IMG/VR virus record: IMGVR_UViG_3300018065_000012
Strand: one strand, 5' to 3'
Origin: a virus
Lineage: Duplodnaviria; Heunggongvirae; Uroviricota; Caudoviricetes
DNA length: 64,000 nucleotides
Part shown: positions 11,859 to 35,997 of the stretch, in pieces
Numbering within the stretch: position 1 is the first letter of the stretch
Layout: each line of letters starts with the position of its first letter
The notes under the pieces: generated by a model
Databases searched by the model: none
The model's input: only the letters and a program-made list of their open reading frames with translations
What the model was told of the DNA's origin: nothing
Program-made: the position numbers and the translations under genes

Positions 11859-11859
11859 A

Positions 11860-11910
11860 GGTCATTTAAGGCTCCTGCCCGTCGATTCGCCTTCTCCCTT
11901 CTCCGATGAG
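11860..11910 (+). other. perfect 11-bp GC-rich inverted repeat (ggctcctgccc / gggcaggagcc) with 29-nt loop; possible terminator or RNA/protein-binding structure
   Basis: Seen directly; no U-tract follows. Confidence 0.35.
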
Positions 11911-11942
11911 GGCAGGAGCCTCTCCCCTTTCTGGAGTTTGCT

Positions 11943-12356: not shown

Positions 12357-12373
12357 ACCCAAGGGAACAGCGA

Positions 12374-12571
12374 ATGGCCGTTGAAGCAACAAGGCAAAAA
12401 ATCTTATTGGAGATCAAAAGGCTACGTCCGGATTTTCCAGATACTACAATCAGACAATGGGTTGATGACTTTTTGAAAGCAGTTAAAAATGCAGATTTGG
12501 AATTGGTAGTAGGCCGGAAGACGAAAACAAAGATTGTACTTCCGAAAAATATTATTAACAGAAGGAGATGA
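12374..12571 (+). CDS. hypothetical small protein
   Basis: aaggga SD 7 nt upstream. Confidence 0.5.
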   Translation: MAVEATRQKILLEIKRLRPDFPDTTIRQWVDDFLKAVKNADLELVVGRKTKTKIVLPKNIINRRR

Positions 12572-12573
12572 AG

Positions 12574-12732
12574 ATGAGAAAAATGAAGCACCCAAGGTGC
12601 AGCCGTGGATTACACGACTATCAGAAAATAAACCAGTACATGAAAGAATGCAAGAACTGCGAGAAGCGCGTAAGAATTGGATTTGATATTCGCAAAAACA
12701 AGATCAGCAATATAGGAAGAAAAAGACGATGA
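12574..12732 (+). CDS. possible 52-aa basic Cys-containing peptide
   Basis: Unlisted ORF with aggag SD 6 nt upstream. Confidence 0.3.
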   Translation: MRKMKHPRCSRGLHDYQKINQYMKECKNCEKRVRIGFDIRKNKISNIGRKRR

Positions 12733-12816
12733 GAAAGAGCGGAAAAGGCAGACGAAAAATAGGTAAGAAGAAACGTCTTGCGAGAAGAAAAGCCCGCAAC
12801 AAGAAATGAGGTAACT

Positions 12817-13323
12817 GTGCCCGAACAGAAACCAAAATCAAAAGAAAACAATACGACGGTACTGACGAAAAGCGGCGTAGTTAAGAAGGTTTTGCTTGCT
12901 GTGATTACCGGCGCTGTCGGAACTGCCTTTGCTGGGATTGTTTGGGTTTGTGGAACGGTTTTGACGCTTCAAAAGGATATGACCACAACGAAAGCGAGTG
13001 TGGAATCAACGGCAAAAATGATTGAGGAACGTTTCAAAGAGCGCCCTGATGATATGGCAATTTGGGAACAGTTGCACAAACATGCAGGAGAGATTAAGGA
13101 ATTGCAAATTAAGGATGCGTTTAAGGACGGACGTTGGGAAGGAATACATAAGAGAAAAATAGAGCACCCTATTCCAGAACCAGATGACGAGGAAGCTATA
13201 GAAAAACCAGAACCAAAAGAAAACGGAGACGATACGAGATCATTTCGAGAAAAACACATGCGTCCTTGGATTCAACAACAGCAAGCAAACGAACCACCGC
13301 TTATGTTGAATAGGAAAAAATGA
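12817..13323 (+). CDS. single-pass membrane protein (TM helix VKKVLLAVITGAVGTAFAGIVWVCGTVL)
   Basis: GTG start after gaggt; hydrophobic segment. Confidence 0.5.
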   Translation: MPEQKPKSKENNTTVLTKSGVVKKVLLAVITGAVGTAFAGIVWVCGTVLTLQKDMTTTKASVESTAKMIEERFKERPDDMAIWEQLHKHAGEIKELQIKDAFKDGRWEGIHKRKIEHPIPEPDDEEAIEKPEPKENGDDTRSFREKHMRPWIQQQQANEPPLMLNRKK

Positions 13324-13344
13324 AAATTATAAAGGATGATCAAA

Positions 13345-13611
13345 ATGAAAAACAAAGGAGTATCGTCGAAACAGGCGTATCACTTGCTCTGTCTCATCAG
13401 GCGAAATTCTTTGAACTTGGGGGGTAAGGAAAAGTTTGCGGTCATAAAGCATTTGGAAAAGATGGCAAAACCATATATAGAAAAACACGTAAGCCATGAA
13501 GAAGTTCAACTTGGAGAATTGTCAAAGCAAATTAGTTACTTGGCGGGGATTGTTCAAAACGTGAGAACGAATCTGGAACAAAAAAATGGAAAAGTCAAAA
13601 CGCATGAATGA
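13345..13611 (+). CDS. hypothetical protein
   Basis: aaagga SD 8 nt upstream of second ATG. Confidence 0.5.
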   Translation: MKNKGVSSKQAYHLLCLIRRNSLNLGGKEKFAVIKHLEKMAKPYIEKHVSHEEVQLGELSKQISYLAGIVQNVRTNLEQKNGKVKTHE

Positions 13612-13828
13612 AAAACAAATTGCTACAAGAATTGCAAAAAGGCTTTTAGCTGATCCCGTAGTTGATAATTACGCAATTGAACTTCAAAAGGCTTCAGACA
13701 AGTTGGAGAATATTTCGAAGAAGGTGCGGTCAAAATCAATAGCTGATTTCAATAAACAGAAAGCAAAACGGTCACTCAAACAATTGAAGCTTGTCCTTGG
13801 ATTATTAACTTCAAATTTCAAGGTGTAA
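13604..13828 (+). CDS. hypothetical small protein with degenerate helix motif (IATRIAKRLLADP)
   Basis: ATGAATGA overlap. Confidence 0.45.
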   Translation: MNEKQIATRIAKRLLADPVVDNYAIELQKASDKLENISKKVRSKSIADFNKQKAKRSLKQLKLVLGLLTSNFKV

Positions 13829-13832
13829 AACG

Positions 13833-14390
13833 ATGCCATTCAAAAGCGTTGAGGAAGCAATAAAGAAACATCCCGGTTTGAAGAAGTATAGTCAGAAGGC
13901 GCAACGGGGTTGGCTCAAGTCGATCAACAGTTGTTTTGCTGGCGGGGGAGACGATGGTAAATGTTTTCCAATTGCTTGGAGCGTAGCAAACAAAGCGGAT
14001 AGCAAGAAAGCCATGGACGAAAAAGATTTTGATGAATGGGTCGTTGACGTGGAGTTCAGAGCAGGGCGGTTTGTAGTTTTCAAAGCAGACACGTTTGCAA
14101 GAGCAGACGAGGTGTACGAAGTTTATCCAAAAGGAAGCAAGAAGAAAATAGCAAGTATAATTTTCAATAACGGAAGAATCAAAATCATGGCAGATGCTTG
14201 GACGTTTACGAGGGAAAACCCTTTGGTCAAAGTTGATAGGGAGATACGAGATCCAAAGCCGATAGATGCGGCTAAGTATTTAGTCAAGCTTTACAAGCTT
14301 TGGGAAATGTACTATACGAAGAGAAAAATTTCAACAGAGTTAATCAAGATAGCAAAGATTCTTATTGGAGAGAACGGCAGTGGAGATTAA
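13833..14390 (+). CDS. hypothetical 185-aa protein carrying the family motif at its C-terminus (ISTELIKIAKILIGENGSGD)
   Basis: C-terminal occurrence of motif. Confidence 0.6.
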   Translation: MPFKSVEEAIKKHPGLKKYSQKAQRGWLKSINSCFAGGGDDGKCFPIAWSVANKADSKKAMDEKDFDEWVVDVEFRAGRFVVFKADTFARADEVYEVYPKGSKKKIASIIFNNGRIKIMADAWTFTRENPLVKVDREIRDPKPIDAAKYLVKLYKLWEMYYTKRKISTELIKIAKILIGENGSGD

Positions 14391-14559
14391 TTACGATGAC
14401 TCGAAATACTGTAATTTATTTGGAGTTGAAAAACGTTGCAGACACTTACATGTGAAACGTGGAAGGTGTAAACGGTTGAAAAAGGATTTGGAAAAAGGAA
14501 TTCTCGGTCTGTGCAGAGTCGTTGAATGCCAAAAGAGAAAATTGAGGGAATACAAATGA
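14365..14559 (+). CDS. possible small Cys-containing protein
   Basis: Overlaps both neighbours; weak. Confidence 0.3.
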   Translation: MERTAVEINYDDSKYCNLFGVEKRCRHLHVKRGRCKRLKKDLEKGILGLCRVVECQKRKLREYK

Positions 14560-14942
14560 AACAGATTGCAAAACAGCTTTTGAAAATTGCCGCTATACTC
14601 GTCAATCCCTTAAATGGAATGAGAAAACAAAAAGCAACAAAAGTTGTAAACAAATTGATGGCAGACGCATCAAAAGGGCTTTTCAGCGATTCATATTGGA
14701 GAGGCGTAAAACAAGTTTGGGAAGCGTTAGACAGAGCAGGAATCCCTTATACGATTATGAGCAACAAGTATACACAGGATAAAGTAACAGGCAACCCCAA
14801 TGCGAAAGAATGGAAGTTTGAAATAGAGTTTGCAAACGAGCGCGGACGCCTTCATAAGCTTTATGGGCGGTTGGTTGCAAGTGGCGCTGGTCCAATTGAT
14901 GATCCTCTTGAACGCTATGATATCACGGTGTATGCTTCATGA
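14556..14942 (+). CDS. small protein, ELLK-AK family (MKQIAKQLLKIAAILVNP)
   Basis: Internal ATG of ORF 14526..14942. Confidence 0.6.
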   Translation: MKQIAKQLLKIAAILVNPLNGMRKQKATKVVNKLMADASKGLFSDSYWRGVKQVWEALDRAGIPYTIMSNKYTQDKVTGNPNAKEWKFEIEFANERGRLHKLYGRLVASGAGPIDDPLERYDITVYAS

Positions 14943-16441
14943 ATGTTTCATCTGAACTTCAAAAAATAGCAACGCTTCTCGTAACTGCGACTCTCGCAGA
15001 AAAAGAATTTGAACGCTTTCTCAAAGTGTTTTTGAAAGGTACGCCTTTTGCGCACAAGGCGTATGCCGTAGGCGGTTACGTCCGTGATGAATTGTTAGGT
15101 TTGGAATCAAAAGACCTTGACGTTGTTGTAGAGATGAAGGGTGGCGCTGAAAAACTTACTAAGTTGATTAAGAAGGAATTGGGCAAAGCAGTTTCTACTC
15201 CGAGGCAATTGGGCGCTGGTTATCCTATTTGGCAGATTGCTTTCAAAGAAGATATTTCTTATGAGGGTAAGACGTATAAAACCAAAGGCGCGGTTCTTGA
15301 ATTTGCCGATACGATGACTGAGAGTTTTCCTGACCCAGAAAGCAGACAACGACAAACTGAATATGGAACGCTTGAGCAGGACGTTAAACGCCGAGATTTT
15401 ACCGTCAACATGTTGATGAAAGATTTGACAAACGGTGAAATCAAAGACTTGACCGGAGTGAGTAAGAATGATTTGAAGAAAGGAATCTTGCGCGGTCATC
15501 CCGGCGTTTCGCTTGATAAGATTTTCATGAACGACCCGTTGCGAATGATACGTTTGATCCGGTTCCAAACGAAATACGGATGGGACATTCCAATGGATGT
15601 GTTACGCATTGTCAAACGCAATGCAAAACGAATTCAAATTGTGTCGCCTGAACGCATTATGGGAGAACTTGAAAAGGTAATGAAATTGGGCAAACTGAAC
15701 AAAGCAATTCGATTAATGAAGATAACAGGTTTACTCAAATATGTACTTCCAGAAGTGGATGAGCTTACAAAAGTCAAGCAGTCGCCGAAGCAACATGCAG
15801 AAGGAAACGTATTCAAACATACTATGATGGTATTGAAAAACGCAAAGCCAACGGTAGAGGCTCAGATGGCGGCGTTGTTGCATGACGTTGGAAAGGCAAA
15901 GACGCAGCAGATATTTGGAAACGGGATTTCATTCCATGGCCATGAAAAAGTGTCTGGTGAAATCGCGGAAGCAATTTTGCGTAGGCTGAAGTTTGACAGT
16001 CGTACGATCAATACTGTTCGCAAATTGGTTGAAAATCATATGCGGCCACATCGAATTGATGATATGATAAAATCAAACAAGGGCGATTCAGCGCGTGTGC
16101 AGAAAGTATTGCGTCGCTTTGTCCGCAAGATTGGTGATGAATCTATTGATGCGTTGATTGACTTGGCAGAGGCGGATGCGATCGGAAAGTTGCCGCCGCA
16201 GAATTATGCTCCCAATCTGAGGCGCATGATTGATGATATCAGAAAGTCTCCGTTACCCGTTTCAAAAAAGCCAGTGTTGGACGGCAAAGAAATTATGCAA
16301 ATACTGAACGTGAAGCCGGGACCGCTTGTTGGGGACGTGTCGCGGTTTCTGATTGAGTTGGAAGAGGACTATGCCGCAAAAGGAAAAGCGTTGAAGAAGG
16401 ACGAAGCAAAGAAACAGGTGCTTGAAAGATATAGTCGTTGA
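14939..16441 (+). CDS. cca: CCA-adding tRNA nucleotidyltransferase with HD domain, fused to a ~28-aa N-terminal family helix (MNVSSELQKIATLLVTATLAEKEFERFLK)
   Basis: AYAVGGYVRDELLG...DLDVVV head-domain motifs of Pol-beta NTase/CCA enzymes; HD region downstream. Confidence 0.75.
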   Translation: MNVSSELQKIATLLVTATLAEKEFERFLKVFLKGTPFAHKAYAVGGYVRDELLGLESKDLDVVVEMKGGAEKLTKLIKKELGKAVSTPRQLGAGYPIWQIAFKEDISYEGKTYKTKGAVLEFADTMTESFPDPESRQRQTEYGTLEQDVKRRDFTVNMLMKDLTNGEIKDLTGVSKNDLKKGILRGHPGVSLDKIFMNDPLRMIRLIRFQTKYGWDIPMDVLRIVKRNAKRIQIVSPERIMGELEKVMKLGKLNKAIRLMKITGLLKYVLPEVDELTKVKQSPKQHAEGNVFKHTMMVLKNAKPTVEAQMAALLHDVGKAKTQQIFGNGISFHGHEKVSGEIAEAILRRLKFDSRTINTVRKLVENHMRPHRIDDMIKSNKGDSARVQKVLRRFVRKIGDESIDALIDLAEADAIGKLPPQNYAPNLRRMIDDIRKSPLPVSKKPVLDGKEIMQILNVKPGPLVGDVSRFLIELEEDYAAKGKALKKDEAKKQVLERYSR

Positions 16442-16786
16442 ATGGTTGTCAATTTCACATCTTGTATCAGGAACGTTTTCAAAGGCATTCATTATGCCAT
16501 TGTTGACGTCGAAGGCACAAAAGGAATCTGTGTTCAAATTCCTGAAAACCATCCATTTCGGCAGCGCGATTCTTCTTTGATTTCTCAGCGCAAGCTTGTG
16601 GCCGAAGGGAATTTTCCACAGTTATCTGCGACGGGATATTGGTTCTGTTTTGAGTGCGATTCTGAATTGCATGATGAGCAGCTTACACAATTATGCCGTG
16701 AAATGATCAATCACGTTCGTCGGCCCTATTGGACGATGTTTAAGCGTGGTATCCGGCGGTTTCTCGCCAATCTAAAACACCTCTAA
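16442..16786 (+). CDS. hypothetical protein
   Basis: 114-aa ORF; weak SD. Confidence 0.4.
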   Translation: MVVNFTSCIRNVFKGIHYAIVDVEGTKGICVQIPENHPFRQRDSSLISQRKLVAEGNFPQLSATGYWFCFECDSELHDEQLTQLCREMINHVRRPYWTMFKRGIRRFLANLKHL

Positions 16787-19760: not shown

Positions 19761-20648
19761 ATGAAAGTTGATTTGCGCAAGTTAGCTGATAAGAAATTGA
19801 TCCATCCACCGGGGTTTGTGATCAGCAATACTCATTACTTGACGATGATGGGTAGCATCGCTTATGGATGTCATTCTGATTCAAGTGATGTGGACCTTTA
19901 CGGGTTTTGTATCCCGCCCAAGCATATGATCTTTCCGCACATTGCTGGGTATATTCCCAATTTTGGAACGCAGCCGGAGAAATTCAATCAGTGGCAAGAG
20001 CACGGGGTCAAAGACAAAGAGCAAAATACAGAGTTTGACTTTCAGATTTTCAGTATCATCAAGTACTTCAATTTGTTGATGAACAATAACCCAAACGTCA
20101 TTGACTCTTTGTTTGTGCCGCAACGCTGTATCTTGCATTGTACGCAGGTTGGAAGCATCGTGCGGGAGAAACGGAAAATATTCTTGCACAAAGGCAGCTG
20201 GCACCGCTTCAAAAACTACGCTGGCTCGCAGCTCAAGAAGGCGAAGAACAAAGAACCAGAAGGCAAGCGGAAAGAACTCGTAGACAAATACGGATTTGAT
20301 ACGAAGTTTTGTTACAACATCGTCAGGCTGCTTGACGAAATCGAACAGATCATGGCGGAAGGCGATATCAACCTTGAACGCAATCGCGAGCAGCTCAAGG
20401 AAATTCGCCGTGGCGAGTGGTCGTTAGAGCGGATTGAAGAATGGTATGCGACAAAAGAAAAGGATTTGGAGTCGCTTTACACACGTTCCAAGCTTCAGCA
20501 GTTGCCGGATGAAGAGGCAATCAAAGAATTGCTCATGGACTGTCTCGAACATCATTACGGGTCGTTGTCTGAGGCAGTGGTTTCAGAAGGCAAATTGATG
20601 CGTTACATGCGCAGGATTAAGGAACTTTGTGAAAAAGCGGGTGCGTGA
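19761..20648 (+). CDS. Pol-beta superfamily nucleotidyltransferase-fold protein
   Basis: GS-x10-DVDL motif (MMGSIAYGCHSDSSDVDLYGF). Confidence 0.55.
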   Translation: MKVDLRKLADKKLIHPPGFVISNTHYLTMMGSIAYGCHSDSSDVDLYGFCIPPKHMIFPHIAGYIPNFGTQPEKFNQWQEHGVKDKEQNTEFDFQIFSIIKYFNLLMNNNPNVIDSLFVPQRCILHCTQVGSIVREKRKIFLHKGSWHRFKNYAGSQLKKAKNKEPEGKRKELVDKYGFDTKFCYNIVRLLDEIEQIMAEGDINLERNREQLKEIRRGEWSLERIEEWYATKEKDLESLYTRSKLQQLPDEEAIKELLMDCLEHHYGSLSEAVVSEGKLMRYMRRIKELCEKAGA

Positions 20649-23984: not shown

Positions 23985-24479
23985 ATGGCAATCAGGACTG
24001 CTTCTGTGGATGACAAAACAGCAACGCTGATCGACAATGGTGCGCGGCTGGATCAAACGGCGAAGAATGTTGCGTTGGAATTGCAAGGCACAAAAGCAAT
24101 TCTTTGTAATAAGGCCGACTTTGAAGCTGACGAGAAAAGTGTTCGGTTGGAAGGCACAAAAGCTTGTGCGGTGGTATCCAAAAGAATTGCTTATGAATTG
24201 AAGTTGCCTAACGATGAAGCGCAGAAGGAATTTGAAGGTGAACTGTCAAAAGGCAAATTTGCAAACGTCGTCAAGGCAGAAGTGAAGGTCAATGTTTCTA
24301 CAGAGCGGCTTGGGGAGCTTGTCATGCTACTCGATCAAAAGGGTTTTACCTTTGGAAAGAAATTCAAGGTTGATCCGAAGGGTTTCAAAGCATATTGCAA
24401 AGAAGTAGATTCTCCGGAAGTGCTCGCAAATAACGTGAGGGAAGAGGAAACAATGAGCGTGAAATTTGAAATTGAATGA
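23985..24479 (+). CDS. hypothetical protein
   Basis: agggag SD 7 nt upstream. Confidence 0.55.
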   Translation: MAIRTASVDDKTATLIDNGARLDQTAKNVALELQGTKAILCNKADFEADEKSVRLEGTKACAVVSKRIAYELKLPNDEAQKEFEGELSKGKFANVVKAEVKVNVSTERLGELVMLLDQKGFTFGKKFKVDPKGFKAYCKEVDSPEVLANNVREEETMSVKFEIE

Positions 24480-25801
24480 AAGGAAGAAAAATGGCGAGAC
24501 GTAGAGAAAAGAAAATCAATGAACAAGAAAAGACGTACGAAGGTTGTTATGGTCAGCGCGTGAAGTATGATCGACTGCTCTCTTTCATCACGACAAATTT
24601 CGAGCTGAACGACATCAATGAACAAAGTGGTCAGCCGCGTTTTGCCCAGTGTATCTGGGGGCATCCCGGCATCGGGAAAACGGCTTTGGTAAAACAACTC
24701 AAAAACACGCCCGTCGAATGGCGTGGCAAGAAGTATGATGGTTGGGACATCCGCGATGTTCCAATTGCGCAGTTTGAAGAAATGGGCGACCTTCACGGCA
24801 TTCCGATGGACTGCATCCTGATGTACAAAATTGAGGGCAAAGGCCCGGACTCTGAAAGGAAAGAGCAGTGGGTGCCGCAGCGCGAACAGACCGTTGTTGC
24901 CTTCAGGGAAGACGGTTGGCAGATTGATTCCAACGTCACGCCGAGAACGATTATGGCACCGCCTGATTGGGTACCTCTCAAGCCCGGACCTGCCATTTTG
25001 CTTCTGGATGACTTCAACCGCGCCAGCATCCGAATCATCAAGGGCATCATGCAGTTGCTCCAGAACTACGGCATGGTGTCGTGGAAATTGCCTCCCGGTT
25101 GCAATATCGTTTTGACGGGCAACCCTGATGAACAGGATTATCTGGTCACGACAATTGATGCGGCTATTATCACGCGCATCAAACACATCACGCTTCAGGA
25201 AGATGCCAAGCAGTGGGCTGAATGGGCCACGTCGCAGAATCTTGATGCCCGTGGAATTTCGTTTTGTCTCTTTGACCCTGAAATGATGATCGGGAAAGAG
25301 CGCACCAACCCGCGAACGCTGTCTGAGTTTTTCCGGTACATGAAAACCGTTCCAAGCGTTGAAGACCTTGACGGTGGCGGTATCCGCAAAGACGTTTCCG
25401 TTCACGCCCATAGCCTTTTGGACGAAGAAACGGTTGCGGCGTTTTTCGTGTTCTGCACGAGGGATATGGAAGACGTCATTGAACCGGAAGATGTTCTTGA
25501 TGGAAAGAAGAACGTTGCTGACCGCGTAAAGAAATTGATGAAGCGCAAGGAGCCGCGCACGGATATTTTGGGCATCACTTGCGAACGACTTTTTGCTACG
25601 ATGGTTCAGTCTGAAACGGAGCAAACGCCAGCGCGAATCAAAAACTTCCAAAAGTTCGTCACCAACGAAGTTGTTCCTCCGGACATTCGTCACTCATTGT
25701 GCAAACGTCTTTCCAAGCGCACGGAAAACGACGGGCGCAATCAGAAGTGGCTGATTGGGGATGAAAAGCTGCGTGAACAGATTTTGGAGATGCTGCGATG
25801 A
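24476..25801 (+). CDS. MoxR-like AAA+ ATPase
   Basis: Walker A GHPGIGKTALV; Walker B ILLLDDFNRA. Confidence 0.65.
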   Translation: MKGRKMARRREKKINEQEKTYEGCYGQRVKYDRLLSFITTNFELNDINEQSGQPRFAQCIWGHPGIGKTALVKQLKNTPVEWRGKKYDGWDIRDVPIAQFEEMGDLHGIPMDCILMYKIEGKGPDSERKEQWVPQREQTVVAFREDGWQIDSNVTPRTIMAPPDWVPLKPGPAILLLDDFNRASIRIIKGIMQLLQNYGMVSWKLPPGCNIVLTGNPDEQDYLVTTIDAAIITRIKHITLQEDAKQWAEWATSQNLDARGISFCLFDPEMMIGKERTNPRTLSEFFRYMKTVPSVEDLDGGGIRKDVSVHAHSLLDEETVAAFFVFCTRDMEDVIEPEDVLDGKKNVADRVKKLMKRKEPRTDILGITCERLFATMVQSETEQTPARIKNFQKFVTNEVVPPDIRHSLCKRLSKRTENDGRNQKWLIGDEKLREQILEMLR

Positions 25802-27479: not shown

Positions 27480-27507
27480 ATTTTTTTCTTGATTTTCTTC
27501 CCGAAAA

Positions 27508-27530
27508 CCATATAATAATTTTATATTTGC
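27508..27530 (+). promoter_or_regulatory. AT-rich element CCATATAATAATTTTATATTT (late-motif family member)
   Basis: Shares TTTTATATTT core with 39071, 49135, 55766, 59586, 62758. Confidence 0.4.
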
Positions 27531-27568: not shown

Positions 27569-28327
27569 ATGAAAACGAAAGTATCGTTGGATACGCTTCA
27601 GGCGTTGTCCTACAATCCACGCCTAATCACCGATATAGAATTGGAACGTCTGAAGGCGTCGATAAAAGAACATACCAAGGCTATTCCCAAGAAGACAAGA
27701 GGCGAAGGTTACCGGCTGACTACCACTGTTACGGTCAACGTCAATGGGAATCGTATTGTTGGCGGACACCAACGAATAAAAGCGTTGAAGTCGTTAGGAC
27801 AGGATTGGATTCACGTCAAAGATATAACTTGGGTAGACGTTAAACCGGATAGCTCTAAAGAAAAGTCTTTGAACATAACGCTCAATAGTGAACGCTATGG
27901 AGGTTTTTGGAATCAGCCAAAGCTTGATGAACTTTTGCGGGGAATCAAAATTGACGATGAAGCGTTATATGAGAAACTTGATTTGCCGTATATTGAACTT
28001 GAAAAAGTAAACGTAGATGTAGCAGAAATGTTGCCGCAGAAGGAACCCGAGAAATCTGGAAAGGACGAGCCAGAGGGGAAACCAGAATTCAACTTAGAAC
28101 CCATTTTTGAAGATGGTCCTGCTTTGGAAGAGCCATTGGAAGAGACAGATGGTAAAGCCGTTGTTCCGTCGGATATGCCGCAACTTTACCCTCTGTCGTA
28201 TGCGGTGACGGCAGAACAACGGCAAAAAATTTTAGCCGCCATCAAAAAGGCGAAAGAAACATATAGTGCGAAAACGAGTGCTGATGCGCTCACGATTGTT
28301 TGCGAACGCTTTAACGATGCGCCTTAA
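27569..28327 (+). CDS. ParB/Srx-like N-terminal domain protein (GGHQR motif), paralog 1
   Basis: VNVNGNRIVGGHQRIKALKSLGQDWIHV; acidic C-terminus. Confidence 0.5.
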   Translation: MKTKVSLDTLQALSYNPRLITDIELERLKASIKEHTKAIPKKTRGEGYRLTTTVTVNVNGNRIVGGHQRIKALKSLGQDWIHVKDITWVDVKPDSSKEKSLNITLNSERYGGFWNQPKLDELLRGIKIDDEALYEKLDLPYIELEKVNVDVAEMLPQKEPEKSGKDEPEGKPEFNLEPIFEDGPALEEPLEETDGKAVVPSDMPQLYPLSYAVTAEQRQKILAAIKKAKETYSAKTSADALTIVCERFNDAP

Positions 28328-28338
28328 CGGAGGAAATT

Positions 28339-29031
28339 ATGAGCACAAAAAAGATTGGCTTGACATCACTCAACGTTGTTGATTACAACCCAAGGATAAT
28401 TGGGAGTGAAGAACTGGAAAACTTAAAAGCTTCAATCAAGGAACACACTGATACCATTCCAGAAGATGAACGTGGTGAGGGCTTTCGATTGACGTCAACG
28501 ATCACCGTGAACAGACAAGGGAATCGTATTATTGGCGGGCACCAACGCATAAAGGCTCTTAAAAATTTGGGTCAGGACTGGATTCATCCTGACGACATCA
28601 CATGGGTTGAGGTTGAACCAAACTCGGCTAAAGAAAAAGCTTTGAACGTAAGCTTAAACAACGACAAAGCCGCTGGGTCGTGGGATAGAACAAAGCTTGA
28701 TGCTATATTGAAGTCTATCAAAGTTGATATGCCGGTCATTTCTGAAAATCTCGGGTTTGACGAAATCCAATTGGAAATGCCTCAAATTGATTCGGGCGAA
28801 ATATCTCAAATTCCAACTACAGAATTGTCAGGAGACTCTTCTGGATCGTCCGACGATGAAAAAGTACAAGGCCCACCTAAACTTGATATTCAAGGCGTTG
28901 ACGACAGAGCAGGACGTTTTTTGCTTACCTACACAACTGATGAAGAGAAAAGCTTTTGGATGAAGCGGTTGGGTATCAAAGGCGATAAGGTCGTCTATGT
29001 TCCTTCAGATGTTGACGAAGTTAACAGGTGA
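28339..29031 (+). CDS. ParB/Srx-like N-terminal domain protein, paralog 2
   Basis: VNRQGNRIIGGHQRIKALKNLGQDWIHP ~60% identical to paralog 1. Confidence 0.5.
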   Translation: MSTKKIGLTSLNVVDYNPRIIGSEELENLKASIKEHTDTIPEDERGEGFRLTSTITVNRQGNRIIGGHQRIKALKNLGQDWIHPDDITWVEVEPNSAKEKALNVSLNNDKAAGSWDRTKLDAILKSIKVDMPVISENLGFDEIQLEMPQIDSGEISQIPTTELSGDSSGSSDDEKVQGPPKLDIQGVDDRAGRFLLTYTTDEEKSFWMKRLGIKGDKVVYVPSDVDEVNR

Positions 29032-29034
29032 TCC

Positions 29035-29805
29035 ATGTATGAAACAAAAAGCGGGAAGAAAGTTTCTATTGTAATCCCATCTAAAGAACGAGCGGAAGCT
29101 GGGACAACTTGGAATTTGTTCCCAGACGCAACGGTATTTGTTCATGAACGCGAATTGGAGGAATACAAAAAGCATTTACCAAATGCAAAAATTGAGACTC
29201 ATACTGAAGATGGCGGGCTTACGCCAATCAGAAATATTATCATGCGAAAGATAAGTATGGGTGATTGGGTAATCCAACTTGATGACGATATAAAGGTCGT
29301 TGGATATTTTACAGCAGATGGTGACAAAAAGAAAAAGGTCAAATGGTCGTCAAAGCAACACATGAACGAATGGTTTAACGCTATTGATCTTGCAGAGAAA
29401 AGTGGATTTTATCTCATTGGAGAATCTCCAACGGCCAATGAATTTTACTATCGTCCAGAGCGTCCGCATTCGATTAACACGTTTGTTGAAGGTCATTGCA
29501 TGATTATCAAGCGTTGCGAATTGATGTTTGATGAAAAATGCAGGGTAAAACAGGATTATGATTATACGCTTCAATGTGCAGTCAGCGGACGTCGGGTTTT
29601 ACGTTTAGATTATCTTTGGTCTGACTACACCTATCGCAAGGCAGCAGGCGGTTGTATGGATACGTGGAAGAAATCCGGATTGGAAGAAGAAGTGTATAAT
29701 TACATGATGAATAAATGGAAAGGTCTTCTTATCCCAAAAAGAAATCGCGCAAGTTCTCCATATGAATTTACGATGAGGGTGCCGAAAGAATGGTCCAACC
29801 AATGA
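29035..29805 (+). CDS. GT-A fold glycosyltransferase-like protein
   Basis: N-terminal KVSIVIPSKERAE and DxD-like QLDDDI. Confidence 0.4.
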   Translation: MYETKSGKKVSIVIPSKERAEAGTTWNLFPDATVFVHERELEEYKKHLPNAKIETHTEDGGLTPIRNIIMRKISMGDWVIQLDDDIKVVGYFTADGDKKKKVKWSSKQHMNEWFNAIDLAEKSGFYLIGESPTANEFYYRPERPHSINTFVEGHCMIIKRCELMFDEKCRVKQDYDYTLQCAVSGRRVLRLDYLWSDYTYRKAAGGCMDTWKKSGLEEEVYNYMMNKWKGLLIPKRNRASSPYEFTMRVPKEWSNQ

Positions 29806-30398
29806 ATTCTGTTTTAGTCATTGCGCCCCATCCTGACGATGCAGAATTAGGTTGCGGGGCAACTATTTCCAAATTAATACGGAATGGCTGTAAGGTATCA
29901 ATATTAACATTGACTGATCGGAGCGAATTTGATATTGAACCAGAAGTTCAAGCGGCTGCAAAAGAACTTGGTTTGGAAGAGAATATAAAGCTTTTGAATT
30001 TTCCTCATCGCGATCTTTGGTCGTCAAGAGCTGGTATCTTGCGCACGTTTGAACGTGCTCGTGATACATTGGATTTAGATGTCGTTTTTACGCCAGCGCC
30101 AGACGACTTACATCAAGACCATCAAGTAAGTTTGGAAGAAGCAAAGCGTGCTTTCAAAGGGACAACGCTTTGGGGTTATGAAATTTTGAGAAGTAATTTC
30201 TCTTTTGCAGCGGATGTGTTTGTTGAGGTAGAGAAGGAAGATGTTGAAAGGAAAGTAAAAGCCATAAAACATTATCATACGCAAGCAAACAAATTGTACT
30301 GTCGCGCAGAAGCGATTTTTGGGCTTGCGCGTGTAAGAGGAGCAATGTGTGGGGCGGTGTTAGCAGAAGGTTTCAAGAATATTTGGCAAGTGCTATAA
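29802..30398 (+). CDS. PIG-L / LmbE family N-acetylglucosaminyl deacetylase
   Basis: VLVIAPHPDDAELGCG (AHPDDE motif). Confidence 0.7.
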   Translation: MNSVLVIAPHPDDAELGCGATISKLIRNGCKVSILTLTDRSEFDIEPEVQAAAKELGLEENIKLLNFPHRDLWSSRAGILRTFERARDTLDLDVVFTPAPDDLHQDHQVSLEEAKRAFKGTTLWGYEILRSNFSFAADVFVEVEKEDVERKVKAIKHYHTQANKLYCRAEAIFGLARVRGAMCGAVLAEGFKNIWQVL

Positions 30399-30407
30399 GG
30401 ACGCGTT

Positions 30408-31658
30408 ATGGATTATTATCAAGCACCAAGGTGGACGTCAGAAATTGCCGATTGCTCGATGCCGATGACGTTTGATCAATATTCAAATTGTTCATATGGC
30501 TGTTTATATTGCTTCAGTACGTTTCAGCGAGCCGTTGGAGACGGGAAAGAAAATTACTTAGCAAAAAGGGTCAAGCCTGTTAAGATTGAAAGCGTAGTTA
30601 AACATTTCTGCGATCCAGAAAAATCTCAATTTGGGCCATTTATTAGAATGGGTAAGACAATGCAATGGGGTTCGTTGTCTGATCCGTTTTGTAATTTTGA
30701 AAAGAAGTATGGCGTTGGATTAGAGTTGTTACGGTTTTTCAAGGCAATAAACTATCCATTGTGCCTTAGCACAAAGGGCGTTTGGTGGCTCGATGATCCT
30801 CGCTATACGGAACTATTCAAAGGTCAAAAGAATTGGAACGTAAAAGTCAGCATCATCATGACAAATGAAGATTTTGTAAAGAAAATTGAGCCGGGAGTTC
30901 CTACGACAAAAGAAAGACTTAAAGCCCTTGAAAAGATTACTGCTTTGAATTGCGGTGGCGCGACTTTGCGATTGCGACCTTTCATTATTGGGATTACGAA
31001 TCACAACAATGGTCATATTGAACTTATCAAAGAATCTGGCAAACGTGGCGCTGGGGCCGTGTCTACAGAATTTTTTTGTTGTGAAAGGCGTTCAATGATT
31101 TTGCGCGAACGTCTAAAAATAATGAGTGAGTGCGCTGGCTTTGATGTTTGGAAATACTATGTAAAGAATTCATACAATCAGGGCTATATGCGTTTGAACA
31201 GAAACACAAAGCGACCTTATGTCGATGAAATGCAAAAGGCGGCACGCGAAGCAGGAATGCGCTTTTATGTAAGTGATGCTCATTTCAAAGAGCGTTGCGA
31301 TAATGGTTCTTGTTGTGGACTGCCTGCTGATTGGCCCGGAAGTTATTCCAAAGGACAATGGTGCGAAGCGTTGATGATTGCAAAGAAACGTGGCTATGTT
31401 ACGTGGGATGATATTGATCCTCACTTGGCTTATGCAGATACGTTCCTTTGGCGTTTGAATATTGGAATGAATCGCGGCTCGGCGGAAAAAGCAGCATCAT
31501 TTGTGAATCATACTTGCAAGGATTATATGCGTTGGTTGTGGAATAATCCAAATGCAGGACAAAGCCCTTACTATATGTACGAAGGAATCTTAAAACCAAG
31601 ACCAGACGCAGATGCGAATGGAAATCTGATCTACGATTACGACTCATCAAAGGCTTGA
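30408..31658 (+). CDS. radical SAM enzyme, SplB / DNA-photolyase-like (COG1533-like)
   Basis: CSYGCLYC = CxxxCxxC; N-terminal context like spore photoproduct lyase family. Confidence 0.6.
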   Translation: MDYYQAPRWTSEIADCSMPMTFDQYSNCSYGCLYCFSTFQRAVGDGKENYLAKRVKPVKIESVVKHFCDPEKSQFGPFIRMGKTMQWGSLSDPFCNFEKKYGVGLELLRFFKAINYPLCLSTKGVWWLDDPRYTELFKGQKNWNVKVSIIMTNEDFVKKIEPGVPTTKERLKALEKITALNCGGATLRLRPFIIGITNHNNGHIELIKESGKRGAGAVSTEFFCCERRSMILRERLKIMSECAGFDVWKYYVKNSYNQGYMRLNRNTKRPYVDEMQKAAREAGMRFYVSDAHFKERCDNGSCCGLPADWPGSYSKGQWCEALMIAKKRGYVTWDDIDPHLAYADTFLWRLNIGMNRGSAEKAASFVNHTCKDYMRWLWNNPNAGQSPYYMYEGILKPRPDADANGNLIYDYDSSKA

Positions 31659-31681
31659 GAGAAACTTTTTTCAAAAAAGTG

Positions 31682-31710
31682 TTGAAAAAATATCTCTGGG
31701 TTGTATAATA
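31682..31710 (+). promoter_or_regulatory. sigma70-like promoter TTGAAA-16nt-TATAAT containing GGTTGTATAATA (site B)
   Basis: Intergenic 31659..31878. Confidence 0.55.
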
Positions 31711-31878
31711 GGACGAGTGGGGCAAGAAAGGAGTCGCCTATGAATTGAAGTGGTGCGTCACTGGCCTTACAGGTGACACGAGTTTTGTTAGCAAACGCAT
31801 TCGTCAATGTTGACAGATACAAAAGCTAACGAATCCGCGACCGATAACAAGGTTGCAAGTGAGCGAAAGGAACAAATC

Positions 31879-32868
31879 ATGTCTGCGAATAAATTTACTG
31901 TTGAAAAACTTGAATCAAAAGTCAACGAAGCAGCTCATATCGTTTTGGGCATTCCCAATTTTATTATCAAAGCCTCAGATGAAGAGCGGAAGAAACTTGC
32001 CGCAAAGCACATCTGGGACAAACTTGGCCTGCTTGGAGTTTACAGGGATGCTGAATCGCATGAGTTGTTAATGGTTGATTGTCCAGAGGGAGAAGCGAGA
32101 CGTGTTTTCTGCGAAACTGGCGGCTCTCCATATCTGCCTGCGGTTCGATTCAGACGTGTCTGGGCTATCCTTACAGAAAGAACCGCGCCCACGACAGACG
32201 TTGCTTATAAGGAATTGAGCAGCGGCTTTGAAAAGTTCAGTCAGGGCTTGAAGGAAACGCTCCGTACGCCGGGACAAATGAAGGACAAGGAACTTGTTGA
32301 AGCTTACGGTCCTGAATGTGAGGTCTCAATCATTGACGAGCTTAAAAGGCGAAGCAATGATCGTCCTTTTGTTGTTTTCAACAACAGAGAAGATGCCGTT
32401 GTGGACGTTGAAACGACGCTCAGAATGTTGCGGGAAGCTCGCCGTGGCCGTACAATGCCTGTCAATTACAAAGTCGCCGACAGTTTGAAGCGGCTTTATC
32501 GTGCTGGCGAATTTCCTGCGATGTTTTATTTTCACTGTCCTTTCCACAAAGATACATTGCTTGTGGATGGATTCTGTGACAAGTCAAAGCAGGTCTGGGA
32601 AGGAATTGATTACGAATGTATGCAGTTTGCCCGCATTGCTCTTGAATTGGAGGAGATCACAAGCAGGACTCCTGATATTCGCCAATTCATTGGTCTTGCT
32701 GTTCAAGGCGGTTTGGAAGGTTTGCGGTTGAACTATCCTCATGTGGCGCTCGTCTTTGATGAGCGGAAGGAAGTTGACTCTCTGCCAAATCTGAAAGTGA
32801 GAATGTCGGATACATCAGGGCGTCAATATGCGGACCCGATGAACCCGAACCAGAAACAGCGTTTCTAA
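31879..32868 (+). CDS. hypothetical 330-aa protein (cluster member)
   Basis: aaggaa SD 6 nt upstream of ATG 31879. Confidence 0.55.
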   Translation: MSANKFTVEKLESKVNEAAHIVLGIPNFIIKASDEERKKLAAKHIWDKLGLLGVYRDAESHELLMVDCPEGEARRVFCETGGSPYLPAVRFRRVWAILTERTAPTTDVAYKELSSGFEKFSQGLKETLRTPGQMKDKELVEAYGPECEVSIIDELKRRSNDRPFVVFNNREDAVVDVETTLRMLREARRGRTMPVNYKVADSLKRLYRAGEFPAMFYFHCPFHKDTLLVDGFCDKSKQVWEGIDYECMQFARIALELEEITSRTPDIRQFIGLAVQGGLEGLRLNYPHVALVFDERKEVDSLPNLKVRMSDTSGRQYADPMNPNQKQRF

Positions 32869-32934
32869 ATCATAAATGTTTGGCCCGTGGGAGGAAACTC
32901 CCACGGGCTGAGCACTTTCTGAAAGGATATAAAA

Positions 32935-34017
32935 ATGGATTACGTAAAAGAACTTGCCAAAGGTGGTTATGTTCATGAAATGGAACATGCCAGCTTCAAG
33001 GCAAGATTGATGAAGGCAGAGCGTCTTGAAGGTGAACAGGTTCACGGTCTCCCTCCCGGTCAACCCATTCCCGTTTTCCCAATTGCCGCATTGCCCGGCG
33101 CACCGGATTCTTGGGTACGCGAAGCAGGGGCGTATGTTTGTCCTATTGATGTCGGATGGGGATTGTGGTTTGATTGGACGATGAATGATGCAATGAACAC
33201 GACAATTGTTCCCAGCGTCAAAGGAATGAATCCTATCACCGGACGCAAGCTTGAAGGTTTGGGGTTGGAGCAGTATGCTGACAAGTGTCCTGTTCATGAC
33301 AAGCCTTTTTCGCATGGCTATTTTTGTGAGGAATGCAACTACTCTTGGCCACCGCAAAATTACGTTTGTCATCCCAATACGCTTTGGTGGGATGGATTCA
33401 GGCAACCGGATGGAACGGTACGGCAATTCTTTTTCACCGATGAAGACAAGCGAGATATTGCCAGTGCGGTAATTGGAAAAGAAAACACCGTACCAGCTTT
33501 TGGTTTTGCATTTTACAAGCCCAAAGTTTCAAGAACGCCACCGCAACGAATCACGCGGGGGTTTAGTGGCTATGGCGGGCAAATGGTTTACACGACAAGC
33601 AACTCGTCGGATCACCAGACGTACGATAGCAGTACAATCTGCCTTTCTGGGGATCAGCTGTCCAAAGGATTGATTGCCCCACAGAGTGTTAACGTTTTTC
33701 ATGTGTCTCAAATTGAAGAGAAGACAAGCGGAAAAGTGAATTGCAATGCTTTGCGGAGTAGTATCAGCGGCCAATCTGAAGCCCCAACGCCAAAGAAAAG
33801 CAAAGACGTCAGTGTTGGCGCAGGAGCGCAGATACGGCAAGATTTATCTCCTGATGATCTCGGGCTTGAAGGATGGCAGGACAAAGCCGGAGGCGTTATC
33901 CGGTTGTACTTCTGCTTTGAAGAGCAATTGAAGGAGATTATCGAAAAGGGTGGCGTCAAGGATTTCATGGTCGCATCGGATAAGGAAGGCTATCTGAAAG
34001 GACTTCCGAAAGGATAG
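32935..34017 (+). CDS. hypothetical 360-aa protein (Cys/His-containing)
   Basis: aaaggatataaaa SD-like. Confidence 0.55.
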   Translation: MDYVKELAKGGYVHEMEHASFKARLMKAERLEGEQVHGLPPGQPIPVFPIAALPGAPDSWVREAGAYVCPIDVGWGLWFDWTMNDAMNTTIVPSVKGMNPITGRKLEGLGLEQYADKCPVHDKPFSHGYFCEECNYSWPPQNYVCHPNTLWWDGFRQPDGTVRQFFFTDEDKRDIASAVIGKENTVPAFGFAFYKPKVSRTPPQRITRGFSGYGGQMVYTTSNSSDHQTYDSSTICLSGDQLSKGLIAPQSVNVFHVSQIEEKTSGKVNCNALRSSISGQSEAPTPKKSKDVSVGAGAQIRQDLSPDDLGLEGWQDKAGGVIRLYFCFEEQLKEIIEKGGVKDFMVASDKEGYLKGLPKG

Positions 34018-34356
34018 GTGAAAAGCATGAATATATTATGTCCAACGTGCCACGGGAAAGGGGCTATCCCCGACCCGAAGAATAATGGGATGGTAATGTG
34101 CTATTGCGGCCCAAACGGGGAAAGGTGTCCAGAGGTCATGTGCCAGACGTGCAGTGGCTCGGGATGGGTCGTAAAAGACGAGCGAGAGCGCCCGACCTGT
34201 CGACACCCGCTACCTCCGCCAAAGTGTCCCAAATGCAGAGATACGGGTCAAATTGCAAAATCAGATTGGAACGGTTGGCGAATGGAAAGATGTGATTGCG
34301 GAGCGGAACCACCGATTTTGCGCTTTTCATGCTCTTCATCGACTTCAGCTTTTTAA
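34018..34356 (+). CDS. DnaJ-type CxxCxGxG zinc-finger repeat protein
   Basis: CPTCHGKG, CQTCSGSG, CPKCRDTG repeats. Confidence 0.55.
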   Translation: MKSMNILCPTCHGKGAIPDPKNNGMVMCYCGPNGERCPEVMCQTCSGSGWVVKDERERPTCRHPLPPPKCPKCRDTGQIAKSDWNGWRMERCDCGAEPPILRFSCSSSTSAF

Positions 34357-34371
34357 GCTGGATTTTTCTAA

Positions 34372-34413
34372 ATATGGGTCGTGTCTAAAAAATGACGCGG
34401 CCCATATTTTTTT
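34372..34413 (+). terminator. rho-independent terminator (12-bp stem with two G-U pairs, 12-nt loop, T7 tract)
   Basis: atatgggtcgtg...cgcggcccatat ttttttt. Confidence 0.65.
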
Positions 34414-34462: not shown

Positions 34463-34783
34463 ATGAAAAACCCATCGGAAGAAGATTGGTCAGAATTGTA
34501 TGGTCGGAAGTTCGAGCATAACGAAATCCGAGAGGCTTGTGACATCTTCGATCTTCTCCGGTATTTCTGCGAAGACAAACCAGAGATGCTTCCATCGTTC
34601 GTCCGAGAAAACATGAAACTGGGGCATCGTCTTTTCATGGCGATGAACCTCGAACCAGATGACCTTGGGGTTTTGGTCTTGAGAGAAGAGGACGATAGAA
34701 TAGTCCACGTCATCAAAGAACGCTGCGCAGAACTCAACAGACAAAAACAGGGACGCAGCAATATCATATTACCGGGAGAATGA
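34463..34783 (+). CDS. hypothetical protein
   Basis: gcggag SD. Confidence 0.55.
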   Translation: MKNPSEEDWSELYGRKFEHNEIREACDIFDLLRYFCEDKPEMLPSFVRENMKLGHRLFMAMNLEPDDLGVLVLREEDDRIVHVIKERCAELNRQKQGRSNIILPGE

Positions 34784-35997
34784 CAGTGGTAAAGAAATCA
34801 AGCATCAACTCGCAAAAAGAAGTAATGATGGGGATTGTCGATCTCATTCGCCACAAGATTTTCTATGGTCACATCTTACAACAGCTCACCAAAGTCTACG
34901 GCGCTGCAAAATACGGAATTCCAACGATGGGCGTTGGAAAGCAGCAGAATGAACTGTTGATTAAGCTTTACGTCAATGAAGAATTTATCAAGCATATATT
35001 TGAAATTGCGAAGACCGAAGAGCAAGCCCATACATTCCTTCAGGGCGTCTTGGAACATGAAACGCTTCATATCATTTTTGACCATATCAAGATGGAATTT
35101 AGCGACCCCGTGCGCGGGAATGTCGCTTGCGACCTTGCTGTGAACAGTCATATCAACCATTCAAACTTGACGCCGGGAGCCTGTTTGCCGGACAAATACA
35201 ATCTTGAATCTGGCAAGGGCGCATTCTGGTATTACACGCATCTAAAAGACAATCAGCAATACAAAAAGCAATGCAAGCAAGGAGCTTTTGGCGCTGGTGG
35301 GATGATGGAGGAAGTTGGTTCCCACGAAATGTGGAAAACAGCAGCTCAAGACCCTCTACTTCAAGAATTTTGCAAAGACATCGTTTCCAAGGCAAGAGAT
35401 TTGTGCAATCAGGATTACGGAGACGTTCCCGGAGAAGTAATTTCACAAGTTGATATGCTATTGGGGAAGAAAAAGGCGATCATTCCTTGGAACAAGGTTT
35501 TGAGAACGTTTGCAGCAAGCGCAACGGAAAGCAACTTGGACTACACGGTGAAACGGGTCAGCAAACGCTTCGGGACGCGTCCGGGAACGCGCAAGGAAGA
35601 CGTTTTGAATCTGGCTGTTGCGGTTGACACTTCAGGGTCAATCAGCGATGATCAGCTGAAGTTGTTTTTCAACGAGGTCAAATGGATTTGGAAAAATGGT
35701 GCAATTGTAACTATGTATGAGGCTGATTGCAAAATTTGTCGTGTGTACGAATTCAAGGGTAAGTTCAAAGGCGAAGTTCATGGGCGAGGTGGTACTGATC
35801 TTGAACCAGTTTTGGTTGCAACTGAACGTCGGTTTGATGCATTAATCTATTTCACAGACTTCTATGCCCCCAATATCAACACTCGTTATCGCATTCCTAC
35901 GCTTTGGGTTTTGACGACTGAGTTGGAACGTGACGAATTTCCTTACAAATGGGGAAGGTTCGTCAAGATAGACTCTGGCAAGCCGGAGCTTGTCTAA
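34780..35997 (+). CDS. VWA domain protein with N-terminal putative HExxH metallopeptidase region
   Basis: LEHETLHIIFDH; MIDAS VAVDTSGSISD; GGTDLEPVL. Confidence 0.6.
   Translation: MTVVKKSSINSQKEVMMGIVDLIRHKIFYGHILQQLTKVYGAAKYGIPTMGVGKQQNELLIKLYVNEEFIKHIFEIAKTEEQAHTFLQGVLEHETLHIIFDHIKMEFSDPVRGNVACDLAVNSHINHSNLTPGACLPDKYNLESGKGAFWYYTHLKDNQQYKKQCKQGAFGAGGMMEEVGSHEMWKTAAQDPLLQEFCKDIVSKARDLCNQDYGDVPGEVISQVDMLLGKKKAIIPWNKVLRTFAASATESNLDYTVKRVSKRFGTRPGTRKEDVLNLAVAVDTSGSISDDQLKLFFNEVKWIWKNGAIVTMYEADCKICRVYEFKGKFKGEVHGRGGTDLEPVLVATERRFDALIYFTDFYAPNINTRYRIPTLWVLTTELERDEFPYKWGRFVKIDSGKPELV

Follow-up and report, generated by a model that had tools for sequence, protein, structure and literature searches.

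A five-gene jumbo phage cassette, very probably for DNA hypermodification, in which a radical-SAM enzyme stands where related pathways have a TET/JBP dioxygenase

The 64,000-nucleotide stretch of viral DNA analyzed here (the window; IMG/VR record IMGVR_UViG_3300018065_000012, Caudoviricetes) carries, at positions 27569-31658, a five-gene operon encoding two ParB-like proteins, a glycosyltransferase (GT), a PIG-L/LmbE-type N-deacetylase and a radical S-adenosylmethionine (SAM) enzyme with a predicted spore photoproduct lyase (SPL) fold. The operon is an accessory cassette of a jumbo phage and, judging from its gene content and from related loci, very probably serves DNA hypermodification. An original prediction, made from the letters of the window, had placed a candidate modification cluster of eight genes at 27569-34356. 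Its central idea holds, being supported by membership of the GT in the TAGT family, by the linkage of the genes in about 100 loci and by a 7-deazaguanine cassette at the syntenic site of a related contig. The boundaries were too wide: the first five genes belong together, the last three are separate. A point absent from that prediction is that the radical-SAM enzyme may take over, in anaerobes, the role of TET/JBP dioxygenases.

All eight open reading frames (ORFs) originally flagged are present on the + strand, at the same coordinates and with the quoted motifs, except for the spelling of one of these, in the PIG-L protein. In the cassette, ParB1 (27569..28327) is followed by ParB2 (28339..29031), the TAGT-family GT (29035..29805, 256 aa), the PIG-L/LmbE-type N-deacetylase (29790..30398, 202 aa) and the radical-SAM enzyme (30408..31658, 416 aa), with intergenic gaps of 11, 3, -16 and 9 nt. 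A ribosome-binding site, AGAGGAAA, is read on the + strand directly 5' of the ParB1 ATG at 27569. Upstream of it lies a promoter-like site (27489..27516, + strand; TTGATT, 16 nt, TATAAT): with 10 of 12 positions matching, it is a consensus match only, and the second-best of the region in a consensus scan. The window is phage DNA, with nearly all genes on one strand, and encodes TerL, an anaerobic ribonucleotide reductase (NrdD), a CCA/poly(A) polymerase and rubrerythrin. Proteins identical to those of the window are carried by contigs of up to 338 kb; the source is therefore a jumbo phage, with a genome of at least 338 kb. Its host is probably an anaerobe, since the window encodes both the anaerobic ribonucleotide reductase and rubrerythrin.

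The association of these genes was evaluated in two independent sets of loci, 46 IMG/VR viral contigs and 57 loci from GTDB species-representative genomes, the latter containing the radical-SAM enzyme; neighbouring GTs were searched with a jackhmmer model seeded from the GT of the window. In the viral set, a ParB-like gene is found in 32 of the 46 loci, usually directly upstream of the radical-SAM gene, and a TAGT-like GT in 22, usually adjoining it. Other recurrent neighbours are ADDT (PF18724), the P-loop kinase Ploopntkinase3 (PF18751), SPASM and B12 radical-SAM enzymes, and SAM synthetase. In the genome set, 49 of the 57 loci feature ParB, within 3 kb upstream in 47 of them; a P-loop kinase of the 5-hydroxymethyluracil (5hmU) DNA kinase type is present in 38, ADDT in 27, SAM synthetase in 17 and a TAGT GT in 9. 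Either a GT or a kinase is found in 46 of these loci, both together in just one. The order ParB-ParB-[GT or kinase]-radical SAM is common to the window, to a Duncaniella metagenome-assembled genome (MAG), to the complete Segatella copri HDE04 chromosome (L195; NZ_CP152346.1, about 1,932,309-1,949,535), where the slot holds a kinase and a terminase large-subunit gene follows the radical-SAM gene, and to Selenomonas ruminantium S137 (L212), again with a kinase. GT and kinase thus alternate in a single slot. TAGT GTs (JGT, phage GTs) and 5-HMUDK kinases both act on the hydroxyl of a 5-hydroxymethyl-pyrimidine in DNA.

The same partners are also found fused: radical SAM to TAGT in P0014 and P0018, TAGT to radical SAM in P0289, P0290 and P0312, radical SAM to HMUDK_HMUD1 (PF18748) in P0082, and kinase, radical SAM and GT, in this order, in P0300. 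ParB-like genes lie directly upstream of P0014 and P0082, and no ParB-radical SAM fusion was found among the 150 best representatives of the radical-SAM family. A further apparent fusion, of 677 aa, in L010 was rejected, as it derives from ORF over-extension in high-GC sequence. The co-occurrence of ParB-like proteins, sugar transferases and radical-SAM enzymes, originally invoked from known pathways, is thus found as gene linkage in about 100 independent loci, and as fusions. Named hosts in the genome records are mostly gut or rumen anaerobes; the groups include Prevotella/Segatella, Phocaeicola, Bacteroidales, Lachnospiraceae, Oscillospiraceae, Selenomonas, Victivallales and methanogen MAGs. 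No description of a module combining ParB, an SPL-like radical-SAM enzyme and TAGT (or HMUDK) was found in the limited literature that could be searched: apparently, this is a large, undescribed operon family in viruses of anaerobes.

The GT contains the DDD motif of GT-A enzymes (QLDDDIK). It matches Pfam TAGT (PF20691, "TET-associated glycosyltransferase") with E 1.4e-12 and a score of 48.4 bits (cut-off 27.5), the match spanning positions 2-195 of the 205 in the profile, and PHROG 842 with E 1.3e-20. The GT-A-like enzyme with a DxD motif, as first described, can accordingly be placed in a family of DNA-base glycosyltransferases; it is proposed to transfer an N-acetylhexosamine (HexNAc) onto a 5-hydroxymethyl group. 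The PIG-L gene overlaps the GT gene by 16 nt. Its product matches PF02585 (E 9e-18; 65.4 bits, cut-off 28.2) and keeps the metal and catalytic motifs APHPDD(AE) and HQDH; the assignment to PIG-L/LmbE deacetylases is therefore retained, with the motif corrected from AHPDDAE to APHPDDAE. The best NCBIfam matches, below cut-offs, are bacillithiol (BshB1) and mycothiol (MshB) deacetylases, and the relatives in the PDB are all de-N-acetylases of N-acetylglucosamine (GlcNAc): TT1542, BshB and diacetylchitobiose deacetylase. The MshA/MshB, BshA/BshB and PIG-A/PIG-L pairs all work in this way, GlcNAc transfer preceding an LmbE-type deacetylation, and the order GT then PIG-L is also found in L015. The PIG-L enzyme is proposed to turn a DNA-linked HexNAc into a hexosamine. 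GlcNAc-type glycosylation followed by de-N-acetylation, one of the readings first offered, is thus the likely sugar chemistry, as indicated by the pairing of TAGT with PIG-L and by the GlcNAc deacetylases among the PDB relatives. HexNAc on phage DNA is documented (Pyle et al., bioRxiv 10.1101/2023.12.21.572611).

Both ParB-like proteins match ParB-like PHROG families: 620, 9353 and 498 for ParB1, with E from 2e-16 to 9e-15, and 9353, 498 and 620 for ParB2, with E from 1.6e-19 to 5.8e-18. Neither has a direct Pfam match; PF02195 is borne by some homologues of ParB2, while others are fused to N6/N4 DNA methylases. ParB1, called as a 252-aa gene in near-identical contigs, is composed of a ParB/Srx-like N-terminal domain with the GGHQR motif, an acidic linker and a short C-terminal domain. 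ParB2, which also contains GGHQR, is its tandem paralogue, with a different C-terminal part: the two are each other's closest relatives and are 50-56% identical over the N-terminal 150-180 residues, in agreement with their original description as ParB/Srx-like paralogues. A role for ParB1 as a DNA-handling or activator subunit is proposed; in phages, ParB activates a subclass of thymine dioxygenases on duplex DNA (PMC13229309). In two viral loci, L006 and L008, the ParB-like genes next to Tet_JBP and next to the radical-SAM gene belong to the same BLAST family as ParB2 of the window.

A different content is found behind a similar ParB array in L056, a 77.7-kb contig (JGI 3300029258) whose flanking genes correspond to those of the window, with 72% identity for an AAA gene and 63% for a metallophosphoesterase gene. 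At the syntenic site (7154-16470), three tandem ParB-like genes are followed by DpdA-like, radical-SAM-like, QueC, methyltransferase, GT2, QueD, QueE and FolE genes, which make up a 7-deazaguanine DNA-modification cassette. The locus is thus a DNA-modification island, where a ParB array precedes swappable cargo. The link to Dnd and Dpd systems, also drawn originally, is not supported for the window itself: no Dnd (DndA-E) or Dpd (DpdA plus preQ0 genes) component is found among its Pfam, PHROG and NCBIfam matches, and DpdA-like and Que genes are found in L056 instead.

The radical-SAM protein features the motif CSYGCLYC, that is CX3CX2C, at C28, C32 and C35. Six further cysteines are conserved in its family (C16, C119, C224, C297, C302, C303) and would be compatible with an auxiliary Fe-S cluster; a conserved N-terminal segment, SPRWSxEIxDCSMPMTFDQYS, is family-specific. 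In a motif alignment, which draws on the SPL motif quoted in PMC8989533, the third cluster cysteine is followed by an invariant Phe (F36), at what is presumably the position of the Tyr of the SAM-regenerating hydrogen relay in SPL; Y34 is kept. SPL chemistry runs through a thymine-methyl radical. The family is large, with 2,346 clusters at 90% identity (E<=1e-5) and, at a stricter threshold, 254 clusters at 50% identity (E<=1e-30). The Pfam Radical_SAM match is weak, below threshold, and the COG1533-type NCBIfam models PA0069 and Rv2578c reach only about 41 bits where their cut-offs are 360-430: the enzyme belongs neither to a curated SPL model nor to a COG1533 family. The closest fold to its structural model is that of SPL (PDB 4fhc), at 13% identity. 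The original label of SplB/COG1533-like radical-SAM enzyme is therefore justified for the motif and, in the model, for the fold, but not for family membership at the sequence level.

Aligned to M6 gp53 by hhalign, the family profile gives a probability of 94.7%, E 6e-8 and 20% identity over 232 columns, with different terminal regions. M6 gp53 is an SPL-like radical-SAM enzyme isomerising N-alpha-glycinylthymidine in DNA, presented by its authors, when they described it, as the first known case of a radical-SAM enzyme introducing a modification into DNA (PMC8989533). The family appears to be distinct from both gp53 and SPL, since blastn with the cluster and tblastn with the radical-SAM protein gave no match in the 50,697 phage records of INPHARED, no PDB relative, SPL included, was found by sequence with the family profile, and no close structural relative exists in BFVD (best TM 0.56). 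This enzyme is the invariant core of the module; it is proposed to activate or hydroxylate the 5-methyl group of thymine in DNA independently of O2. As a separate observation, insertions of about 320 aa, probably inteins, interrupt the radical-SAM domain of many family members (P0291, P0307, P0309, P0317, P0388, P0390, P0373, P0389, P0432), in some soon after the N-terminal cluster region and in others later in the domain; an intein-containing model exists in NCBIfam for the related Rv2578c family.

TET/JBP dioxygenases need O2; the substrates of ThyA-like hydroxymethylases are free nucleotides, so that the base is replaced genome-wide. In known systems, the hydroxyl to be modified comes from one or the other (PMC13229309, PMC8256090, PMC8989533). 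Among the window ORFs of at least 60 aa, profile searches for Tet_JBP (PF12851), Thymidylat_synt and C5-methylase gave no match. Tet_JBP is present in three of the 46 viral loci (L006, L008 and L009, the last two near-identical) and in none of the 57 genome loci. A ThyA-like gene, for which E. coli ThyA and the M6 homologue served as phmmer and jackhmmer queries, is found in one viral locus and in no genome locus; the same screen detects the M6 homologue, 3.6 kb from gp53. Neither gene is present on a 44,372-bp contig carrying ParB, radical SAM and GT, which was rebuilt whole.

The relation between the radical-SAM gene and TET is best seen by comparing L008 with L222, two loci collinear over a dozen genes with 64-94% amino-acid identity. 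L222 reads ParB-TET-GT-SPASM, L008 reads ParB-TET-[ParB-radical SAM]-GT-SPASM: the sole difference is a two-gene indel between TET and GT (9300-11239 in L008, 6988-7005 in L222). The clean indel shows that ParB and the radical-SAM gene move as a two-gene unit, here beside ParB and TET and upstream of a single GT. A second, parallel route to the acceptor would look like the arrangement in L008, and L222 shows that, where TET is present, a GT pathway does not require the radical-SAM enzyme.

The best explanation of these data as a whole, whose chances of being right or wrong seem evenly balanced, is a ParB-assisted, O2-independent conversion of T to 5hmU, HexNAc-hmU and finally hexosaminyl-hmU, carried out after replication on the phage's own DNA. 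ParB1 and ParB2 would bind duplex DNA, or open it, and so make it available to the radical-SAM enzyme, a role assigned by analogy because ParB activates thymine dioxygenases. The SPL-fold enzyme would cleave SAM and abstract a hydrogen directly from the thymine C5-methyl; a one-electron oxidation, for which the auxiliary cluster would serve, and the capture of water would then yield 5hmU, or an equivalent activated 5-methylene, without O2. On the resulting hydroxyl the TAGT enzyme would place an N-acetylhexosamine, from which PIG-L would strip the acetyl, giving an analogue of base J whose amino sugar is positively charged. Such a free-amine product would resemble many thymidine hypermodifications, and should block restriction enzymes. 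The linkage to SAM synthetase would fit a stoichiometric use of SAM.

In this scheme four elements are inferred: which base is the substrate, what the radical-SAM enzyme does to it, which sugar is added and in what order the steps occur. That the radical-SAM enzyme supplies the acceptor is plausible, if short of probable. The wider proposal, put forward tentatively, is that the SPL-fold radical-SAM enzyme and ParB form an anaerobic counterpart of TET/JBP, feeding interchangeable GT or kinase/ADDT modules in phages of gut and rumen anaerobes, with an amino-sugar analogue of base J as the end product in this phage. The relation to TET/JBP would be that of HemN to HemF.

Several points weigh against the scheme. 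We know of no radical-SAM enzyme that hydroxylates thymine. The acceptor base of the window TAGT and the substrate of PIG-L are themselves predictions, and L015 is the sole other locus seen with PIG-L beside the module. The TET and ThyA screens of related loci used few seed sequences and extended 8-10 kb in either direction. The window represents 64 kb, the genome at least 338 kb, so that a dUMP hydroxymethylase or a 5mYOX (TET/JBP) enzyme could lie elsewhere. In L006, L008 and L009 the radical-SAM enzyme coexists with TET, and may add a step rather than replace it; in kinase/ADDT loci it could come into play after amino-acid transfer, as M6 gp53 does. Radical-SAM enzymes of any kind should be more frequent in anaerobes, which makes the host bias weak evidence.

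Some of these points are shared by a rather unlikely alternative, in which the cassette is still devoted to hypermodification, the radical-SAM enzyme is a late tailoring enzyme, like the M6 gp53 isomerase, and the acceptor, 5hmU or 5-hydroxymethylcytosine (5hmC), is made elsewhere in the genome. The enzyme would rearrange or trim a group already present on the 5-methylene carbon. The only characterized relative, M6 gp53 (as aligned by hhalign), does isomerise after the kinase and ADDT steps (PMC8989533); many relatives sit beside kinase and ADDT, coexistence with TET in L006, L008 and L009 fits equally, and the window covers less than one fifth of the genome. Enzymes 50-60% identical, however, occur in GT-only, kinase-only and kinase plus ADDT settings, where the groups attached are chemically unrelated, so that the substrate they share is more likely the base itself. 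The M6 ThyA homologue is 3.6 kb from gp53, whereas within 8-10 kb of the present genes a ThyA-like gene is found in one of about 100 loci, and not at all on the whole 44-kb relative. Moreover, the radical-SAM gene travels with a ParB of its own, mirroring ParB and TET, and its frequent linkage to SAM synthetase would suggest a stoichiometric rather than catalytic use of SAM.

The target may also differ from thymine: the radical-SAM enzyme would install a new handle on cytosine or 5-methylcytosine in DNA, or on RNA, and the GT would glycosylate it. This is improbable, even though the TAGT-like phage GTs characterized so far act on 5hmC (PMC8256090; bioRxiv 10.1101/2023.12.21.572611), the function of the radical-SAM family is a prediction from sequence and fold, and genes of RNA-repair type, RlaP and CCA/poly(A) polymerase-HD, are present in the window. 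Profile searches of the window revealed no C5-cytosine methylase. The enzymes that otherwise partner the radical-SAM enzyme (the 5-hmU DNA kinase family, as the PF18748 fusion and PF18751, and ADDT) belong to thymidine pathways, thymine in DNA is the target of SPL-fold enzymes as it is of M6 gp53, and 5hmU is thought to be the product of most phage 5mYOX pathways (PMC13229309). Far less credible still is a set of functionally unrelated genes, namely SplB-type repair of UV photoproducts, a GT/deacetylase pair for host surface glycans or thiol cofactors, and ParB-like proteins acting in partition or as nucleases. Source databases do label family members as "DNA repair photolyase", and bacillithiol and mycothiol deacetylases are the best NCBIfam matches of PIG-L; all NCBIfam matches, however, are far under their cut-offs, and the GT matches TAGT specifically. 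Five genes tightly packed or overlapping behind one promoter-like site, the invariant F36 where SPL presumably has its relay Tyr, and the linkage of ParB, radical SAM and GT or kinase in about 100 loci, with fusions in several orders, also speak against it. Photoproduct repair with unrelated surface-glycan enzymes, the alternative named in the original prediction, does not fit these conserved neighbourhoods.

Among known systems, the closest to the hypermodification pathway proposed here are those combining a ParB-dependent 5mYOX enzyme with GTs (PMC13229309; PMC8256090; bioRxiv 10.1101/2023.12.21.572611). Shared features are a cluster for post-replicative modification, ParB directly before the base-activating enzyme, GT-A/TAGT-like glycosyltransferases and the precedent of HexNAc on DNA; the same ParB family adjoins Tet_JBP in L006 and L008, and in L008 the ParB-TET and ParB-radical SAM pairs stand side by side. 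The window and nearly all its relatives differ in having no Tet_JBP, whose place is filled by the radical-SAM enzyme with its predicted SPL fold; the window features, in addition, two tandem ParB paralogues and PIG-L, and the named hosts of the module are mostly anaerobes, where an O2-dependent dioxygenase would fail. Base J synthesis in kinetoplastids (JBP1/2 and the TAGT-family JGT) follows the same predicted logic, T to 5hmU and then a sugar added by TAGT. There the hydroxylase depends on O2 and 2-oxoglutarate, the sugar is glucose and the system is eukaryotic; in the viral cassette, hydroxylation is presumably by radical SAM and the sugar probably a HexNAc, later de-N-acetylated. The cassette would thus work like the 5mYOX/GT pathways and base J synthesis, yet lacks the TET/JBP enzyme by which they are defined.

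With the kinase/ADDT pathway of M6 and ViI the cassette would have in common an SPL-like radical-SAM enzyme acting on thymine derivatives in DNA, and modification after replication. Relatives of the window enzyme are often beside, or fused to, kinases of the 5-hydroxymethyldeoxyuridine DNA kinase type (PF18748, PF18751), and beside ADDT. The gp53 protein is nevertheless a distant relative (20% identity, no tblastn match) and probably not an orthologue. A GT is present in the window where relatives have a kinase, kinase and ADDT being absent; no ThyA-like hydroxymethylase lies near the module, while in M6 ThyA is 3.6 kb away; and ParB is an obligate neighbour in the module of the window. SplB/SPL (PDB 4fhc) shares the CX3CX2C motif and, in the model, the fold. 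The window enzyme differs by its low identity (13%), by additional conserved N- and C-terminal parts, six more conserved cysteines and Phe for Tyr, and by a genomic setting of modification, not of repair or sporulation. In the MshA/MshB, BshA/BshB and PIG-A/PIG-L systems, as in the cassette, a GT gene is followed by an LmbE deacetylase gene with the APHPDD and HQDH motifs; their acceptors are inositol, malate and phosphatidylinositol, where that of the cassette would be a DNA base, and MshA and BshA are GT-B enzymes, where the cassette GT is of the TAGT family.

If correct, the scheme would explain post-replicative DNA hypermodification in phages of strict anaerobes, including the abundant gut and rumen phages of Prevotella/Segatella and Bacteroidales. 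It would add a new type of reaction to radical-SAM and DNA chemistry, and provide an O2-independent enzyme for writing 5hmU into DNA. DNA modified by the cassette may be protected from restriction enzymes and may be difficult to sequence or amplify, a source of bias in gut viromes if so. Two named strains carrying the module, Segatella copri HDE04 and Selenomonas ruminantium S137, are usable experimental systems.

Downstream of the cassette, a 148-nt gap follows the radical-SAM gene and holds the best promoter-like site of the region in the consensus scan (31682-31709). The next unit, on the + strand at 31807..34356, is composed of ORFs of 353 aa (U353), 360 aa (U360) and 112 aa (the zinc-finger ORF); a 16-bp hairpin with a T-run is found 3' of it, at 34370-34409. 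The U353-U360 pair is kept in two related jumbo-phage contigs, L050 (253 kb) and L051 (470 kb), the former also keeping the downstream DUF2201 and metallopeptidase genes; no ParB, GT, PIG-L or radical-SAM gene is present at either locus. Gene spacing, promoter- and terminator-like signals and the retention of U353-U360 without the cassette therefore limit the cluster to 27569-31658. U353 and U360, found in phages without the cassette, are part of the shared backbone of these phages and form, with the zinc-finger ORF, a separate unit; the two proteins of about 350 aa and the zinc-finger protein are consequently removed from the cluster as first drawn. The cassette has a GC content of 42.0%, this unit one of 47.9%.

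Profile searches gave no family match for the 353-aa and 360-aa proteins. The zinc-finger ORF (34018..34356, + strand) begins with GTG and abuts the stop codon of U360. Its description as a DnaJ-type zinc finger is supported by three CxxCxGxG motifs and weakened by a DnaJ_CXXCXGXG score of 23.3 bits, under the cut-off of 32.7. The recorded gene calls of two related contigs omit it; the three motifs and the terminator-like hairpin directly after it suggest that it is a real gene.

Two genes flanking the region are unrelated to the cassette: an AAA ATPase-like gene upstream (24476-25801), conserved in L056, and a DUF2201 VWA/metallopeptidase gene downstream (34780-35997), conserved in L050. Elsewhere, the window contains genes for phosphatidylserine decarboxylase (3598-4677), a CCA/poly(A)-polymerase-HD protein (14939-16441), an RlaP-type nucleotidyltransferase (19761-20648) and NrdD (60139-62151); the rubrerythrin match is to one smaller ORF. 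GC skew is positive (about 0.1-0.33) in all 2-kb intervals but one, and almost all genes are on the + strand.

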